Assembly: GCA_031409655.1 (NCBI GenBank) | Contig: JANNXQ010000102.1 | Location: 1 to 64,000 of the forward strand | Reading direction: 5' to 3' | DNA: 64,000 nucleotides | From: Chthoniobacteraceae bacterium | GTDB lineage: Bacteria > Verrucomicrobiota > Verrucomicrobiia > Chthoniobacterales > Chthoniobacteraceae | In this document: positions 31,982 to 39,283 of the stretch, piece after piece | Layout of the letters: the number at the start of each line of letters is the position of its first letter | How positions within the stretch are numbered: position 1 is the stretch's first letter | Made by a program: the position numbers and the translations under genes | The notes under the pieces: generated by a model | Told to the model about the DNA's origin: nothing | The model's database searches: none | The model's input: the letters and a program-made list of their open reading frames with translations, nothing else

Positions 31982-32830
31982 ATGGAAATTCGCAAAGCCC
32001 TCATCACTGCTGCCGGCAAGAATCAGCATTCCCTCCCGCTCCAGACGCTCGTGGACCGGGACGGCGTCACCAAGACCGCTCTCGCGATCATCATCGAGGA
32101 AGTGCTCGGAGCAGGCATCGAGACGATCGGCCTCGTCATTGCCCGCGGCGACGAACCGGCCTATCGCGCTGCCGCCGGCCAGCACGCGGGGCGGCTGACT
32201 TTCATCGAGCAAAGTGCGCCGCTCGGTTACGCGCACGCCATTCATTGCGCGGCGGCTTTCTGCGGAAACGATCCCTTCCTGCTTCTCGTCGGTGATCATC
32301 TTTACCTGAGCAGCACGCGCACTGGCTGCGCCCAGCAACTCGTGGAAATCGCGCGCGCAGAAAAGTGCGCCGTCTCCGCGGTGCAATCGACCCACGAGAG
32401 CAAGCTGCCCTACTACGGCGCCATCGGTGGCCAGCTCGTGGACGCGGCTCGCCGACTCTATCAGGTCGATACCGTCCTCGAAAAACCCACGCCCACGGAA
32501 GCCGAGCAGAAGATCGACGTGCCGGGCCTGCGGGCCGGCTACTACCTGTGTTTCTTCGGTATGCACGTCCTCACCCCGGCCGTGCAGCGGATGCTTGGCG
32601 AGGCTTTTTCCAAAGCTGGCGCCACGGTGAACTTCCGCTCCATGCTCGCCGAACTCGCCCGCCAGGAGCGCTACCTCGCCTGCGAACTCGAAGGCCGCCG
32701 CTACGACTTCGGTGTGAAATACGGCCTGCTCACCGCGCAGCTCGCCCTCGCCCTCGATGGCACCGATCGCGATGAAGTCCTGCGCGGCTTGGTGGAGCTG
32801 ATGGCCACCAGCAAACAGGTCGCGAAGTGA
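31982..32830 (+). CDS. GalU-like sugar-phosphate nucleotidyltransferase
   Basis: [33 protein letters not shown]. Confidence 0.85.
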
Positions 32831-35800
32831 GCGGCCCCGCAGGTCCGAAGACCATGAACTTGCTCGGCCTCATCACCAGCCCCAATCCGGCAATCCGGGA
32901 TCGCTCGCTCGATGATCTCGTGGCGGCTGCTTCGCTCGAAGAACTGCTCGCCGAATGCGAGGCGCTCGACGCCTTCCGCCGACAATCTCCGAATCTCTAC
33001 GAGCGGGTCCGCGCGCTCTTTTTTCTCTACGCGCTCCATCGTTTCCATTTGCCAACGCGCGAAGGGCTGCGGACCAGCGGGCTCATCCCATTTCAAGGTT
33101 TCGAGCATCTGCTGGAGCGACGGTTTGCCGAGGCGATCGAAGTCTTTTCGCAAACGCAGAAAGCCGAAGGCGCGAGTGACGCGCTCTCTTCAGCCCTGGC
33201 GGCGGCGTATCATCGGCTGGCCTTTCAGACCCTCGCCGATCAGGTGCGGCGCAGCGTGCGTAGCGTGCGCGGCAATCAATGGATGTTCCGCATGGGCCAT
33301 CCGAAAGATCAACCGCTGCGCTTCCGTCCAAATCTCTTGCAGCGTTCAGCGGATGGCTCGTATCCGATCCTCCGCGAGCTGACGCCAGTGCGGATGGATC
33401 TCACCCACTCCGCGTGGAGCGACATCTTTTTCCTCGGCATGGACTACCCCGAGGGCGCGAAGGTGCTGAACATCTCCGTGGATCTCGGCGTGCATGGCCG
33501 CGACGCCGATCCGCAGCCGCCGGTGAGCGCCTGGCTGCGCGTGATCGAGGAGCCCGTGCTGCGACTCGTCTCCGTGGATCTCGCGGCAAGTGCAGAGATC
33601 TCGTCGCTGGCGGAGGTTTTCGACTTTGCCAAAGACTACCTCGGACTGCTCAAAGCCGCGGTGATCGCGAGCGGCGTCGTGCCGCCGGGGATCGAAGGCT
33701 CGGGCCAGTCCCTCGGCGATCTGCTCGCGCAGATGCTCGGCCCCGGTCGCGGTCTCGAACTCGTCTCCAGCGTGAACGACATCCCGAAAGGCTCGCGCCT
33801 CGCCGTGAGTACGAACCTGCTCGCCGCGCTCGTCAGCGTGCTCATGCGCGCCACTGGCCAGGCCGAGTCGCTCACCGGTCCGCTGCGGGAAGAAGAGCGC
33901 CGGCTCGTGCTCGCGCGGGCGCTGCTCGGCGAATGGCTCGGCGGCAGCGGCGGCGGCTGGCAGGACTCGGGTGGCGTCTGGCCAGGGATCAAGGTGATCG
34001 AAGGGGTGGCGTCGCTCGTCGGCGATCCGGAGCACGGCATTTCGCGGGGTCGGCTGATGCCGAAGCACCACGTCTTTTCCCGCGACGAAATCCCCGAGTC
34101 CGCCCGCGAAAAACTCCAGCAGTCGCTCGTTCTCGTGCATGGCGGCATGGCCCAGAATGTCGGCCCAATCCTCGAGATGGTGACGGAAAAATATCTCCTG
34201 CGCAGCGGCGCAGAATGGGAGGGTCGTCAGGAAGCGCTCGGCTTTCTCCAAGAGATCCTCGACGCCCTGCGCGTCGGCGATATCGCGCGCGTCGGCGAAG
34301 TCACCACGCGCAATTTCAGCGGCCCGATCCAGACGATCATCCCGTGGGCTTCCACCCATTACACCGAGCGGCTCATCGAGCAGGTGCGCGCGGAATTTGG
34401 CCCCGACTTCTGGGGCTTCTGGATGCTCGGTGGGATGAGCGGCGGCGGCATGGGCTTCATCTTCGCCCCGCAGCGCAAAGCCGAAGCCCAGGAGCGACTC
34501 GCCGCCATCATGTCGGCGACGAAACGCGAACTTTCCGCCTCGCTGCCCTTCGCCATGGAGCCGGTCGTTTACGATTTCAAAATCAACGAACGCGGCACCT
34601 TCGCCGACCTGCTCACGGGCGATGCCGCGCTGATGCCGAAAGGCTACTACCTGCTCACCGCTCCCGCGCTCATCCGCACCGATCGCCGCCAGCTCTCCGC
34701 GCTGCGCCGGGCCGATCTCGATAAATTTGCCGCCGCCTGCCGCACCCGGCCCGAACTCAGCGGCGTCGTGCAGGAACTCTTCGACAACCTGCTCCCGCGC
34801 ACCAAGGCCGACCGCAACGAAGGCCAGGGCACACTGGAAGAATTGCTCACGCAAAATGGCTTCGACCGCGAAGCCCACGAGCAAATCCGCGGCGATCTCC
34901 GCGCCGGCCGCATCGGCCTCGCGCAAAATCGCCTGCCCGCGAATGCCGTGATCGAAGACGTGCGGCCGGAGGACGTCAGTAGTAGCGCAGGCTTCCAGCC
35001 TGTGGGAGTGCCGCAGGCATCCCTGCCTGCCGGGGCGTCAGCACCAGATCCGTTCCACCCTTTCGAAGAGGAAACCCCCGCCGCCGTCCGCGCCCGCCGC
35101 CTCCCTCACTGGGAGCAGGACGGAGCCACCTATTTCGTCACCTTTCGCCTGGCCGACTCGCTGCCGAAGGAGGCCATCGTCTCGTGGCGCACCGAACGTG
35201 ATGCCTGGCTGCGCACGCATCCGCGTCCATGGACACCCAAAGTCACGGAGGAATACTACCGCCGCTTCCACGAAGCCATCGAAGAGCAGCTCGACAAAGG
35301 ACAGGGCGCTGCCGTGCTTGCCGACCCGCGCGTCGCCGAAATCATCGAAGCCGCGATGTGCCACTTCGACGGCGAGCGCTACGTGCTCGGCAGCTACGTC
35401 GTCATGCCGAATCACGTCCACGTCCTCGTCATTCCGCAGGATGAAGAGGAACTCTCGAAGATCCTCCATTCGTGGAAATCGTATTCGGCCAACAAGATCA
35501 ATGAACTCCTCGATCGAGACGGACCGCTTTGGCAGCGGGAAAGCTTCGATCACATCGTGCGGCACGAGCACGAGTTGCTGGCGATCGAACGCTACATCGC
35601 GGAGAACCCTCGGAATGCGCGGCTAAGTGAGGGGAAGTATCGGTTGGGGAGTGGCGCGGAAGCTCGGAAAGAGGGGCAGGCAAGGATGCCTGCGACACTC
35701 CTACAGGCTGGAAGCCTGCGCTACTACGAGCGCGGCCTCGCCGCCTTGCAGGCTGGCGAAGCCGCCGTCGTGACGCTCGCCGCAGGTGCCGCATCGCGCT

Positions 35801-36900
35801 GGACGCAAGGCGCGGGCGTCGTGAAATCGCTGCATCCCTTCTGCAAACTCGGCGGACGACATCGCACTTTCCTCGAGACGCATCTCGCAAAATCGCGACG
35901 CATCTCGCACCTCGCGGGCACTGCGGTGCCGCACATTTTCACCACGAGCTACCTCACGCACGGCCCGATCTCCGCGATCCTCTCAGCGCGCGGAAACTAC
36001 GGCTACGAAGGCCCGCTCGTTCTTTCCCGCGGCAAGAGTGTCGGCTTGCGACTCGTGCCGACCGCGCGCGACCTCCGTTTTGCGTGGGAAGAAATGCCGC
36101 AGCAGGTGCTCGACGAGCAGCAGCAAAAGGTGCGCGATTCGGGCCGCAAGGCGCTGATCGGCTGGGCCGAGGGCGCAGGCGAAGCGACCAACTACACGGA
36201 CAATCTCCCGCTCCAGTGCATGCACCCCGTCGGGCACTTCTACGAGATCCCGAATCTCCTCCGCAATGGCACCCTGGCCGCGCTCCTCCGCGAGCGCCCG
36301 CAACTCACGACGCTGCTCCTGCACAATATCGACACCGTCGGCGCGGACCTCGATCCCGCCTTGCTCGGACAGCATCTCGAAAGCGGCGCGACGCTCACCT
36401 TCGAAGTCATCAATCGCCGGCTCGAAGATCGCGGCGGCGGCCTCGCCCGCGTCGATGGCCGGGTGCGGCTGGTGGAAGGTCTCGCCATGCCGCGCGAAGA
36501 ACTCGAGTTCGGCCTCACTTACTACAACACGCTCACGACGTGGATCGACATCGACGGCCTGCTTGCCGCGCTCGGCCTGACGCGCGCGGACATTCTCGAT
36601 CCCGAGCCCGCCGCCGAAGAGCGCATCCTCGCCGCCATCCGCACCCTCGCCGCAAAGGTGCCGACCTACATCACGCTCAAAGACGTGAAGAAGCGCTGGG
36701 GCCATGGACAGGAAGACATCTTCCCTGTCGCGCAATTTGAAAAGCTCTGGGGCGACCTCAGCGCGCTGCCCGAAATCCAGAGCCGCTTCGTCGTCGTGCC
36801 GCGCCTGCGCGGGCAGCAACTCAAGGAACAGGCGCAGCTCGACGGCTGGCTCCGCGACGGCTCGGCTGGCTATGTCGAGTCGCTCTGCGAGTGGACGTAG
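32827..36900 (+). CDS. GHMP sugar kinase / UDPGP-type pyrophosphorylase fusion carrying an in-frame Y1 transposase domain
   Basis: [27 protein letters not shown] (GHMP); [23 protein letters not shown] (UDPGP family); start 32827 or 32854. Confidence 0.85.
34978..35727 (+). mobile_element. REP-flanked RAYT-type HUH transposase element inserted in frame
   Basis: [47 protein letters not shown]; 53-bp terminal IRs at 34979-35031 and 35675-35727 (50/53). Confidence 0.92.
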
Positions 36901-37712: not shown

Positions 37713-37834
37713 CGTTTGAAGTTTGGCGTTTGGCGTTTGGGGTTTGGCGTTGAACTTTTCTGCGGGTGCTGGCTAACGCCAAACTTCAAACGCCAAACTT
37801 CAAACTTCAAACGCCAAACTTCAAACGCCAAACG
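37713..37834. repeat. Heptamer tandem inverted repeat (GTTTGGC/GTTTGAA arm, then AAACGCC/AAACTTC arm)
   Basis: Read directly; arm order reversed relative to 10666-10758. Confidence 0.9.
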
Positions 37835-37888
37835 ACGGAATCTCGCCCGGCGCGCCTGGCCTTCGACGGTAAACCGGCTTTTTTTCCC

Positions 37889-39283
37889 GTGACCCGCATC
37901 GTCGGCATCGAAACTGAGTACGGCTGCCTGGTCGCCAATGACCCGCAGCACGGGACGGATTCGTGGCCCGCGCGGGTGAAAAATTACCTCTTCCGGAAAG
38001 CGCAGGCTGGCGCGATTGATCTCCACTATCGCGACTATGAGGAGCCGCCGGGCAATGGCGGATTTCTCCTGAATGGTGGGCGGCTCTACATCGACATGGG
38101 GCACCTCGAGTACTCGTCGCCGGAGTGCCTCACGGTGCGCGACATCGCGAGCTACGATCTCGCCGGAGACGCCCTGATCCAGAGCGCGCTCGAAGCCCTC
38201 GGCGCCACCGAGGAGGTCGCCTTCATCAAAAACAACATCGACCACCACACCGGTGCGACCTTTGGCTGCCACGAGAACTATCTGATGCGGCGCGATCTGC
38301 AATTCAACGCGCAGATCCTCGGCACGCTCCTCTCCTTCCTCGCCACCCGCCAGCTCTTCACCGGGGCCGGTCGCGTAGGCCAGGCCAGTCCCCTGACCTT
38401 TGATTTCGAGCCCGCAGCCGCGACGGATCAGGTCCCCTTTCAGCTCAGCCAGCGCGCGGATCACATCGTCAACGACATCTACCAGTGGGTGCAATTTAAC
38501 CGCGCGATCATCAATGCACGCGACGAACCGCTGGCCGACTACCGGCGCTATCGGCGGCTGCACCTGCTCATCGGCGACTCGAATATGAGCCCTTTCGCCA
38601 CAGCGCTCAAAACTGGTACCACGGCACTCATCCTCACGCTGCTCGAGGAAGGCGAACTTCCCGACGACGTGCTCCTGCAGGATGCCGTGATCGCCACGCG
38701 CCAGATCTCCCACGAAGGCACGGGCCACGCCGTCGTGCCGCTCGAGGACGGACGCACCCGCTCGGCGCTCGATATCCAGGAGACCTTCCTGGCCCACGCG
38801 CAGCAGCATCTCGGCGGCACCGATGAGGAAACGGATTGGGTGCTCCAGCAATGGGCCTTTACCCTCGAAGCCCTGCGCACGAAGCCTGAGTTACTGATTG
38901 GCGGCGTCGATTGGATCTCAAAGAAGTACCTGCTCGACACCTTCCGCGAAGCCGAGGGGCTCGCCTGGAATGATCCGTGGCTGCAAAGCCTCGACCTCGA
39001 ATATCACAAGATCGATCCAGCCAAGGGCCTCTTCTTTGCGCTGACGCCGGGCAAGGTCATTGGCGAGTTCAATGACAGCGTGCGGCGCCCCGAAGCGTGC
39101 CGCATTGCTCCCGCCGACACCCGCGCCCATGGTCGCGGCCAGGCCGTGGCACTTTTCCAAAAAGGCCAGCTCCCCTACGTGATCAACTGGGATTCCATCG
39201 CCGTGGAGAATTCGAGCAGCCTCGCGATGTCCGACCCCTTCGACCCCTACACGGATCAAGCAAGCGCGCTCTTCGCAGAGTGA
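37889..39283 (+). CDS. Pup-ligase/Dop family protein (PafA-like)
   Basis: GIETEYG, NGGRLYIDMGHLEYSSPEC, KNNID, GCHENY, SQRADH, RAIINARDEP, RLH..GDSN, LDLEYH, TRA; GTG start. Confidence 0.92.
   Translation: MTRIVGIETEYGCLVANDPQHGTDSWPARVKNYLFRKAQAGAIDLHYRDYEEPPGNGGFLLNGGRLYIDMGHLEYSSPECLTVRDIASYDLAGDALIQSALEALGATEEVAFIKNNIDHHTGATFGCHENYLMRRDLQFNAQILGTLLSFLATRQLFTGAGRVGQASPLTFDFEPAAATDQVPFQLSQRADHIVNDIYQWVQFNRAIINARDEPLADYRRYRRLHLLIGDSNMSPFATALKTGTTALILTLLEEGELPDDVLLQDAVIATRQISHEGTGHAVVPLEDGRTRSALDIQETFLAHAQQHLGGTDEETDWVLQQWAFTLEALRTKPELLIGGVDWISKKYLLDTFREAEGLAWNDPWLQSLDLEYHKIDPAKGLFFALTPGKVIGEFNDSVRRPEACRIAPADTRAHGRGQAVALFQKGQLPYVINWDSIAVENSSSLAMSDPFDPYTDQASALFAE

Follow-up and report, generated by a model that had tools for sequence, protein, structure and literature searches.

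Within the 64,000-nucleotide stretch of DNA analysed here (the window), a REP-RAYT-REP cassette is embedded in frame in the flexible interdomain linker of a two-domain sugar-activating enzyme of sugar-nucleotide biosynthesis, and sequence comparison makes it probable that this cassette is an autonomous REPtron that is translated as an internal domain of its host protein. A preliminary description of the locus had proposed a frame-preserving selfish element that uses host expression. This proposal is supported by the in-frame state of the insert in all filled orthologues, the dN/dS ratios of both insert and host, the lack of any start codon before the transposase core in half of the cassettes analysed, the existence of empty alleles, and in-frame copies of the cassette's REP family in other genes of the same genome.

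A stop-free cassette lies in the linker of a two-domain enzyme

The host ORF and the parts of the cassette are listed in Table 1. When the N-terminal part of the host protein was compared with NCBIfam, a partial match to the fucokinase model was obtained (69.6 bits versus a cutoff of 721), while Pfam returned no domain for this part. The cassette had been placed at the junction between a kinase and a pyrophosphorylase domain; its position in the linker between the N-terminal part and the UDPGP-like domain holds, but the kinase label derives solely from the partial fucokinase match.

Table 1. Features of the host ORF and its cassette, in coordinates of the window
Feature	Position	Strand	Remarks
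Host ORF, 1357 aa, GTG start	32827..36900	+	overlap with the upstream NTP_transferase gene at its stop; cassette in frame
Host N-terminal part, 717 aa	32827..34977	+	partially matches bifunctional fucokinase in its GHMP-kinase part
REP-RAYT-REP cassette	34978..35727	+	750 nt = 250 codons; no stop; no ATG before the catalytic core
Left REP arm	34979..35031	+	two tandem hairpins, GTAG foot; translated as a linker predicted to be disordered (pLDDT <50)
Folded RAYT core (predicted)	35080..35676	+	model residues 40-238, pLDDT ~90
HUH motif, His-Val-His codons	35413..35421	+	invariant, 22/22 aligned relatives
Catalytic Tyr codon of the Y..NP motif	35593..35595	+	invariant, 22/22 aligned relatives
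Right REP arm	35675..35727	-	inverted copy of the left arm, 50/53 bases; translated as a linker predicted to be disordered
C-terminal host domain, UDPGP-like nucleotidyltransferase, 390 aa	35728..36900	+	-

The two arms are 53 nt long, 94% complementary and separated by 643 nt, and the full insert length is reached once base 34978 is counted together with the inverted-repeat span. The arms, each of which holds two tandem hairpins, gave -14.8 and -14.4 kcal/mol when folded with DNA parameters, and both are open in the host frame with no stop in either, which confirms the stop-free inverted-repeat arms of the preliminary description. That description had also noted that the element has no stop of its own and no ATG upstream of its motifs. 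Both observations stand, and in the copy of the source genome (G000) we additionally found two in-frame GTG codons before the RAYT core, both within the left arm, at which separate initiation might occur. The first residue of the insert is Ser and its last residues are Tyr-Tyr, followed by Glu, and no second ORF product is encoded between the arms.

The insert is predicted to encode a RAYT-type transposase

The insert matched the Pfam family Y1_Tnp at 35.1 bits (cutoff 23), and its best NCBIfam model was REP_Tyr_transpos, at 71 bits and under that model's cutoff of 80. A profile search of solved structures gave 4ER8 as the top match (E 2.4e-7); the same structures searched with the single insert sequence yielded no match, a profile being required to reach 4ER8. 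This structure was again the top match when an AlphaFold model of the insert was submitted to Foldseek (E 2.3e-6, TM 0.59 on the target), and the arm-encoded residues 1-28 and 239-257 of the model had pLDDT values below 50, in contrast to its confidently modelled core. The earlier recognition of a Y1 transposase with intact HUH, WQ and Y..NP motifs is thus borne out by the Pfam match, the invariance of the HUH motif and the catalytic Tyr, and the fold match, and the insert is predicted to encode a RAYT-type (TnpA-REP) HUH/Y1 transposase. An IS200/IS605 insertion sequence was considered and rejected, as the IS200 model reached only 20.8 bits, far under its cutoff of 55, the two ends are REP doublets in inverted orientation and nearly identical, whereas such elements have differing left and right subterminal hairpins and often TnpB, and there is no second ORF.

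REPtrons and RAYTs (Nunvar 2010, PMC2817692; Bertels & Rainey 2011, PMC3116915; Quentin 2018, PMC6006769), exemplified by TnpA-REP (E. coli YafM, PDB 4ER8), share with the cassette the HUH/Y1 fold, the HUH, WQ and Y..NP motifs, and GTAG-footed inverted REP hairpins that flank the gene and recur dispersed in the genome. Known RAYTs are free-standing genes, whereas the cassette RAYT is a stop-less and often start-less internal segment of a host protein, and its lineages, unlike known RAYTs, each keep to a single site in a single host gene. According to PMC3479197, TnpA-REP of E. coli is monomeric, a state compatible with insertion as a domain. The literature covered, including text passages of PMC6006769, PMC3733652 and PMC3479197, contained no account of an in-frame RAYT within a host gene, though the supplements of these papers may list such long proteins. 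Transposases of this type are seen as free-standing, single-copy and domesticated, and the cassette suggests another niche for them.

The insert is in frame in all filled orthologues and under purifying selection

The host gene was present in 99 of the 151 genomes of the family, and 15 of these, probably with 4 more, gave an uninterrupted match across the insert; none of the 99 had a filled site with stops. Linker sites could be extracted as 15 filled (246-278 aa), 22 empty (8-16 aa) and one REP-only site (60 aa). Beyond the source genome the same architecture was found in 14 other genomes and 30 other database proteins, and the insert kept the frame and contained no stop in any filled orthologue found (15 genomes; 43 sequences with database proteins included). 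The empty alleles that had been predicted therefore exist, and one of them belongs to G003, a genus mate with 92-93% identity to the source genome in the host parts and with 8 unrelated linker residues at the position of the cassette. We also sought the exact ends of the element by comparing empty with filled sites, for which the linker proved too variable. The outer inverted-repeat span is not divisible by three in 12 out of the 15 cassettes, and the position of the cassette within the linker varies by several codons from one cassette to another, so that the element ends given here should be taken as approximate.

Purifying selection acts on the insert in the host frame. Its dN/dS was 0.11-0.33 in all eight orthologue pairs, with a dS equal to that of the host in five of them, and the host parts gave 0.04-0.25 in the same comparison. 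Across 14 cassettes, the flanks outside the core contained no stop in 1250 codons of the host frame, versus 13 and 26 stops in the two other frames (1222 codons each), and seven of these cassettes had no ATG, GTG or TTG before the core. A scan for promoters and terminators revealed one promoter-like site within the RAYT (0.4 expected) and four terminator-like sites (3.4 expected), with no site at the cassette ends.

These results also bear on whether the cassette could be a chance in-frame hit in a dying gene, or an artefact of assembly. Long chance open frames are common at the genome's GC content of 63.4%, where the median random open frame is ~114 aa, and unitigs break within the repeated arms. 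We nevertheless consider such an origin extremely improbable: the architecture recurs across independent assemblies, filled sites bearing stops were absent from the genomes with the host gene, and the host dN/dS indicates that the gene is not dead, so that the relaxed selection on the host domains named in the preliminary description as evidence against its reading was not observed.

We infer that the host ORF is translated across the insert into a single polypeptide. Because the cassette is stop-less, and start-less in many relatives, production of the transposase would depend entirely on translation of the host ORF, and the transposase would form a folded internal domain with the two translated REP arms as flexible tethers. 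The host enzyme would remain functional, while the fused RAYT, which retains its catalytic residues, would be active and serve the REP family of the genome, and expression of the REP-mobilising enzyme would be tied to expression of the host gene.

Contigs cross both junctions and contain no joint between the host parts

Logan contigs from runs X1 and X2 crossed from host to arm at both junctions with no differences (34437-35008 and 35699-35889), and depth was ~13 across host and insert alike, although both runs are possibly the source of the assembly and so lend no independent support. In run X3, positions 34924-34978 were uncovered among the pieces listed, and run X4 had four bins without depth. 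A stop, a frameshift or a misassembly had been named as findings that would count against the element; the contigs of X1 and X2 show no difference from the assembly over the two junction spans given above, and independent support for the architecture comes from its recurrence in other genomes and proteins. No host-to-host joint was present in the contigs of the four runs, which drop rare variants, and the joints in these contigs that skip ~650-700 nt have other letters between their two sides, such that we attribute them to REP pairs at other places in the genome. A search of 34500-36200 against Rfam on both strands returned nothing at E<=1, and Pfam detected no Hint or intein domain in the insert. 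Together with the residues at the ends of the insert, this confirms the earlier observation that intein ends and group I/II intron features are absent. An intein, for which both a Hint domain and a C-terminal His-Asn are lacking, was accordingly rejected, as was a group I/II intron or IStron, there being no Rfam match in this interval.

Removal at the DNA or RNA level, which had been offered as an alternative, thus found no support, but it remains as a rival in a broader form, in which the mature enzyme would lack the segment owing to its prior removal, either by precise excision from single-stranded DNA by the RAYT in some cells, by mRNA processing at the 53-bp stem or by proteolytic release at the tethers, the in-frame status being only a fail-safe. 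IS200/IS605-type elements excise seamlessly, which we count in favour of such removal. The arms are able to form the 53-bp stem in mRNA as well, the peptides they encode are predicted to be disordered and hence accessible to proteases, and close relatives carry empty alleles. Removal is nonetheless unlikely in our view, given the lack of any intron or other Rfam family, of intein end residues and of a Hint domain, and given equal depth over host and insert with no joint between the host parts; moreover, the complete absence of stops from the flanks of the 14 cassettes would be needless if the segment were gone before translation.

Cassette lineages and empty sites are intermixed among closely related host genes

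Identity between host parts was nearly uncorrelated with identity between RAYT domains (Spearman 0.135, 903 pairs). For example, one relative (G001) is 94.8% identical to the source genome in its host parts and only 44.5% identical in its RAYT. Host genes as much as 95% identical carried one or the other of two deep RAYT lineages (~45% identical) or no cassette, in a mixed pattern, suggesting that the cassette can be acquired, lost or replaced in the way of an allele. In a well-supported host clade of 32 rows, 12 empty sites, 11 cassettes of lineage IIa and 9 of lineage I were intermixed, and the starred branches in this clade force at least nine changes for lineage IIa and at least six for lineage I, in trees built on a biased sample for which the database proteins were found via the RAYT itself and the best 120 of 3333 were examined. 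Simple vertical co-divergence as the whole story is ruled out by the weak correlation and the intermixed states. Sliding-window identity of the source-genome flanks to carriers of lineage IIa versus genus mates revealed no clear imported recombination tract around the junction.

We infer that, at the population level, the cassette acts as an allele of the linker, a site that can be occupied by any of at least two old RAYT lineages or stay empty, with exchange or loss that would greatly outpace divergence of the host gene. Living in a conserved gene that tolerates in-frame states only would protect the element from deletion, in the manner of an intein. Inteins resemble the cassette in being selfish, residing in frame in a conserved gene and being expressed through the host ORF, and also in their patchy presence, site-specific lineages and disagreement between element and host phylogenies. 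They differ in possessing a Hint domain and splicing residues, which the cassette lacks, and nothing indicates that the cassette is removed from the protein; furthermore, the nuclease of the cassette is an HUH single-strand DNA enzyme, whereas that of inteins is a LAGLIDADG or HNH homing endonuclease. IStrons, which combine an IS200/IS605-family element with a group I intron (available part of bioRxiv 10.1101/2023.11.20.567912), likewise belong to the IS200 superfamily and lower the cost to the interrupted host gene, but do so by RNA self-splicing and carry TnpB, while the cassette has no intron family and no TnpB and would avoid this cost by staying in frame. A whole transposase unit within a host protein, with expression by read-through only and allele-like turnover, would constitute a second route besides inteins by which a selfish nuclease can find shelter within conserved genes.

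The RAYT domains grouped by host gene, among them the host gene of the cassette, DinG, DnaE, CarB and ClpB, and in a tree of 141 cores the host-gene labels required 18 changes versus a shuffled mean of 89.4. A RAYT domain was detected at E<=1e-10 in 3333 proteins of at least 376 aa, and among relatives, cassettes occupy mid-ORF positions in CarB, ClpB, ValRS, LeuRS and AlaRS. Thousands of long proteins in public data thus carry a RAYT domain, and their present annotation names either the host enzyme or a 'RayT transposase'; for protein engineering they offer many natural cases in which a 200-residue HUH nuclease is tolerated as an internal domain. More speculatively, the RAYT cassettes in this clade may behave as homing alleles in the manner of inteins, in which each lineage is bound to one site in one conserved gene, is expressed only via translation of that gene, spreads to orthologous empty sites of related bacteria and occasionally jumps to a new gene, as from the host gene of the cassette to DnaE, while the same fused enzyme maintains the REPs of the genome. 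We put this forward tentatively; were it true, translation of the host gene would act as the switch for an entire family of mobile repeats.

The cassette arms belong to REP families dispersed in the genome

The source genome contains 35 arm copies of the cassette's REP family in 22 clusters, mostly as close inverted pairs. Of its five RAYT homologues only that of the cassette is flanked by this family, the others having different arms, and judged by these flanks the RAYT domain of the cassette is the only candidate enzyme for the REP family. The preliminary description had suggested searching the genome for the arm and checking the frame of intragenic copies; this revealed non-autonomous copies of the family in frame in DnaE, in an Lhr-type helicase and in a PKS/NRPS linker. 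Inverted-repeat arms were present in all 15 cassettes examined, matched at 85-98% within a genome and differed between genomes, and the arms of the cassettes of two relatives (G001 and G002) are REP families within their own genomes.

A further explanation is domestication, whereby the RAYT domain has taken on a role for the host enzyme or the cell, for instance in tethering the enzyme to DNA or in regulating it, and is no longer selfish. The purifying selection on the insert and the specificity of RAYT lineages for a host gene are consistent with this, and RAYTs in general are described, in the available part of PMC5581495, as single-copy, vertically inherited, domesticated transposases, which we count in its favour. 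Close relatives manage without the cassette, however, as illustrated by the 22 empty sites, which include genus mates; the two lineages replace one another at the same site despite their low identity; like cassettes reside in functionally unrelated proteins; and the arms track genome-wide REP families, which argues for a transposase role. We therefore regard domestication as improbable, and an autonomous in-frame REPtron as the probable identity of the cassette.

Palindromes read through in frame, as the cassette arms are, have precedents in the Rickettsia palindromic elements (RPEs) and the intragenic GTAG REPs of Opitutus terrae, which according to the available part of Di Nocera 2013 (PMC3733652) are translated as short loops, often in genes of replication and repair. 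Those elements are non-autonomous and span 20-80 residues, whereas the segment here, at 250 residues, would be a whole autonomous unit that includes the transposase, and it may bear on the question of why proteins of replication and repair carry REPs so frequently. At the linker site occupied by the cassette, one relative (G006) carries a REP-only insert.

Architecture of the insert and its probable translation within the host protein

As the preliminary description had proposed from inspection of the sequence, the insert is bounded by inverted repeats (94% complementary) and, including base 34978, spans 750 nt or 250 codons (Table). Folding with DNA parameters placed two tandem hairpins in each arm (-14.8 and -14.4 kcal/mol), with a GTAG foot at the start of the left arm, and neither arm interrupts the frame of the host ORF with a stop codon. 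The arms enclose a Y1/HUH transposase (Pfam Y1_Tnp, 35.1 bits, cutoff 23) whose top NCBIfam match is the RAYT model, at 71 bits and under its cutoff of 80; the IS200 model scored only 20.8 bits. Using a profile of 22 relatives, E. coli TnpA-REP (4ER8) was identified as the best relative of solved structure (E 2.4e-7), and 4ER8 was also the top Foldseek match (E 2.3e-6) of an AlphaFold model with a mean pLDDT of 77.7 and a core of ~90. All 22 of 22 aligned sequences share the HUH histidines and catalytic tyrosine, in agreement with these motifs having been described as intact.

Table. Coordinates of features in the window and of related loci in G000 (the genome holding the window), G002 and G006 (related genomes)
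Feature	Locus	Position	Strand	Remarks
Host ORF		32827..36900	+	open frame, 1357 aa, cassette inside
Cassette		34978-35727
Inverted repeat arms		34979-35031 with 35675-35727		53 nt, 643 nt between
Pup-ligase family gene		37766-39283		PafA/Dop-like, 419 bits
RAYT-less REP pair	L010	G000:C103:56885-56993		in frame in DnaE, between NTPase and finger domains
RAYT-less REP pair	L007	G000:C196:34099-34210		in frame in Lhr-type helicase
RAYT-less REP pair	L014	G000:C55:18696-18803		in frame in PKS/NRPS interdomain linker
RAYT homologue	L003	G000:C213:32861-33445
RAYT homologue	L002	G000:C187:31241-31819
Y1_Tnp-like segment	L004	G000:C138:15809-16147		in frame in alanyl-tRNA synthetase
REP-only linker	L043	G006:C11		60 aa, in frame
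Second REP pair	L037	G002:C111:8349-8455		in frame, near residue 79

Intein end residues were absent from the insert and no intron family matched the region, as had been noted earlier; a Hint domain was absent as well. We consider removal of the cassette, whether from DNA, RNA or protein, unlikely. Contigs from two sequencing runs (X1 and X2), which are possibly the source of the assembly, spanned both cassette junctions with no differences and equal depth. Chance or artefact appears highly improbable as an explanation.

The best-supported reading, which we judge probable from sequence comparisons, is that the RAYT and its REP arms (together a REPtron) live in frame in a permissive linker of the host protein. 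The RAYT would be translated as an internal domain, with the arm-encoded stretches, predicted to be disordered (pLDDT <50), serving as tethers. E. coli TnpA-REP is a monomer (PMC3479197), which is compatible with work as an inserted domain. This frame-preserving reading, already favoured in the preliminary description, draws on the filled sites being in frame and on constraint across genomes. Insert dN/dS was 0.11-0.33 in 8/8 pairs and that of the host parts 0.04-0.25 in the same pairs, indicating that neither is decaying and speaking against a dead host gene under relaxed selection. In 14 genomes, the cassette flanks outside the RAYT core contained 0 stops in 1250 codons of the host frame, versus 13 and 26 stops in the other two frames (1222 codons each). 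ATG, GTG and TTG are all absent before the core in 7/14 cassettes; the G000 cassette has two GTG codons inside an arm.

The C-terminal 390 aa of the host protein match UDPGP. For the N-terminal 717 aa, Pfam gave no domain and NCBIfam only a partial match to the kinase portion of bifunctional fucokinase, making "kinase" a weak label. Bacterial sugar transferase and NTP_transferase genes lie upstream, placing the host gene within a sugar-nucleotide or polysaccharide cluster. Two genes downstream is a Pup-ligase family gene; the best-known examples of pupylation genes come from Actinobacteria. The G002 orthologue carries a second in-frame REP pair in its N-terminal part, and host-gene matches in several further genomes likewise begin at residues 74-81, which may mark a second insertion hotspot.

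Occupied and empty sites in related genomes

The host gene is present in 99/151 family genomes (E<=1e-90). Among the matches listed, at least 15 of these 99 genomes, and probably four more, showed a match unbroken across the insert, with no stops in the filled sites. Extraction of the linker revealed 15 sites filled with a RAYT cassette (246-278 aa between host parts), 22 empty sites (8-16 aa) and one site, in G006, with REP sequence only; the last holds three GTAG-footed hairpins and no RAYT, and is either a cassette remnant or an independent REPIN insertion. The empty alleles sought in the preliminary description thus exist, including in the genus mate G003 (host parts 92-93% identical). Exact junctions were less well defined, as the cassette position within the linker differs by several codons and G003 carries eight unrelated residues there. 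Of the top 120 among 3333 database matches, another 30 proteins have the same architecture. Source names attached to database relatives indicate Chthoniobacterales (Verrucomicrobiota).

Host and RAYT identities were nearly uncorrelated (Spearman 0.135, 903 pairs): between the related genome G001 and G000, host parts are 94.8% identical and RAYTs 44.5%, and the RAYTs nearest to the G000 copy (64-65% identical) reside in hosts 83-84% identical. The RAYT tree comprises two deep lineages, I (9 rows) and II (34 rows), with the window RAYT in a 12-row subclade, IIa (99% support). In the host tree, 12 empty sites are intermixed with 11 sites of IIa and 9 of lineage I inside a single clade of 32 rows (99% support), where the starred branches require a minimum of 9 changes for IIa and of 6 for I. 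Insert dS equalled host dS in 5/8 pairs, which fits co-inheritance, and was two to four times host dS in two, which fits exchange; no imported tract was seen in the flanks around the cassette. Exchange could proceed by recombination on short flanks or by re-insertion. Domestication of the RAYT for a host function, with which the constraint on the insert would agree, seems unlikely given this turnover. Inverted-repeat arms of 20-111 nt were kept in 15/15 cassettes examined, matching 85-98% within one genome yet differing between genomes.

Relation to genomic REP families and to other host genes

The arm family has 35 matches in 22 clusters, mainly close inverted pairs, in the 6.85-Mb G000 genome. 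Only the window copy among five RAYT homologues is flanked by it, the other four bearing different arms. On the suggested frame check of intragenic copies, three RAYT-less copies (37-38 residues each) sit in frame within other proteins, at positions that separate recognised domains, and two more cases are uncertain. In-frame intragenic REPs of this type are already known; the verrucomicrobium Opitutus terrae is particularly rich in them, as are genes for replication and repair (PMC3733652). Likewise, the G001 and G002 arms each represent a REP family of the respective genome, with 4 and 18 other copies. Of L003 and L002, one is free-standing, in an open frame of 225 aa, and bears REP arms of its own. 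The other lies C-terminally in an open frame of 528 aa, the first 320 residues of which gave no Pfam match. The more divergent segment in the G000 alanyl-tRNA synthetase sits between the class II core and tRNA_SAD domain and carries separate inverted repeats of 24 nt; at least 10 relatives have comparable AlaRS matches with long open frames.

In relatives, RAYT homologues occupy in-frame, mid-ORF positions in CarB, ClpB, ValRS, LeuRS, AlaRS and others, most with flanking inverted repeats; these loci were picked for long open frames, so the fraction is a biased estimate. The 141 cores in a FastTree phylogeny group by host gene, with 18 label changes versus a shuffled mean of 89.4, and the 38 DinG rows form a single clade. 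A 47-row clade (97% support) contains the 34 rows of the window's host gene and a nested DnaE clade, a topology that suggests a RAYT jump from this gene into DnaE.

No description of a RAYT read in frame inside a host gene was found in the literature searched; a passage of Quentin et al. 2018 explicitly sets unexpectedly long Y1 proteins aside as fusions or annotation errors (PMC6006769). Our analysis adds a metabolic, non-translation host gene, a three-state allele-like pattern on the host tree, RAYT clades specific to host genes, dN/dS, stop and start statistics, and an in-frame RAYT tied to its genomic REP family. P0003, a 1682-aa restriction-modification methylase, scored far above what 50% identity would suggest and linked otherwise unrelated host proteins in a "mixed" cluster; two or more RAYT cassettes may be present in this protein.
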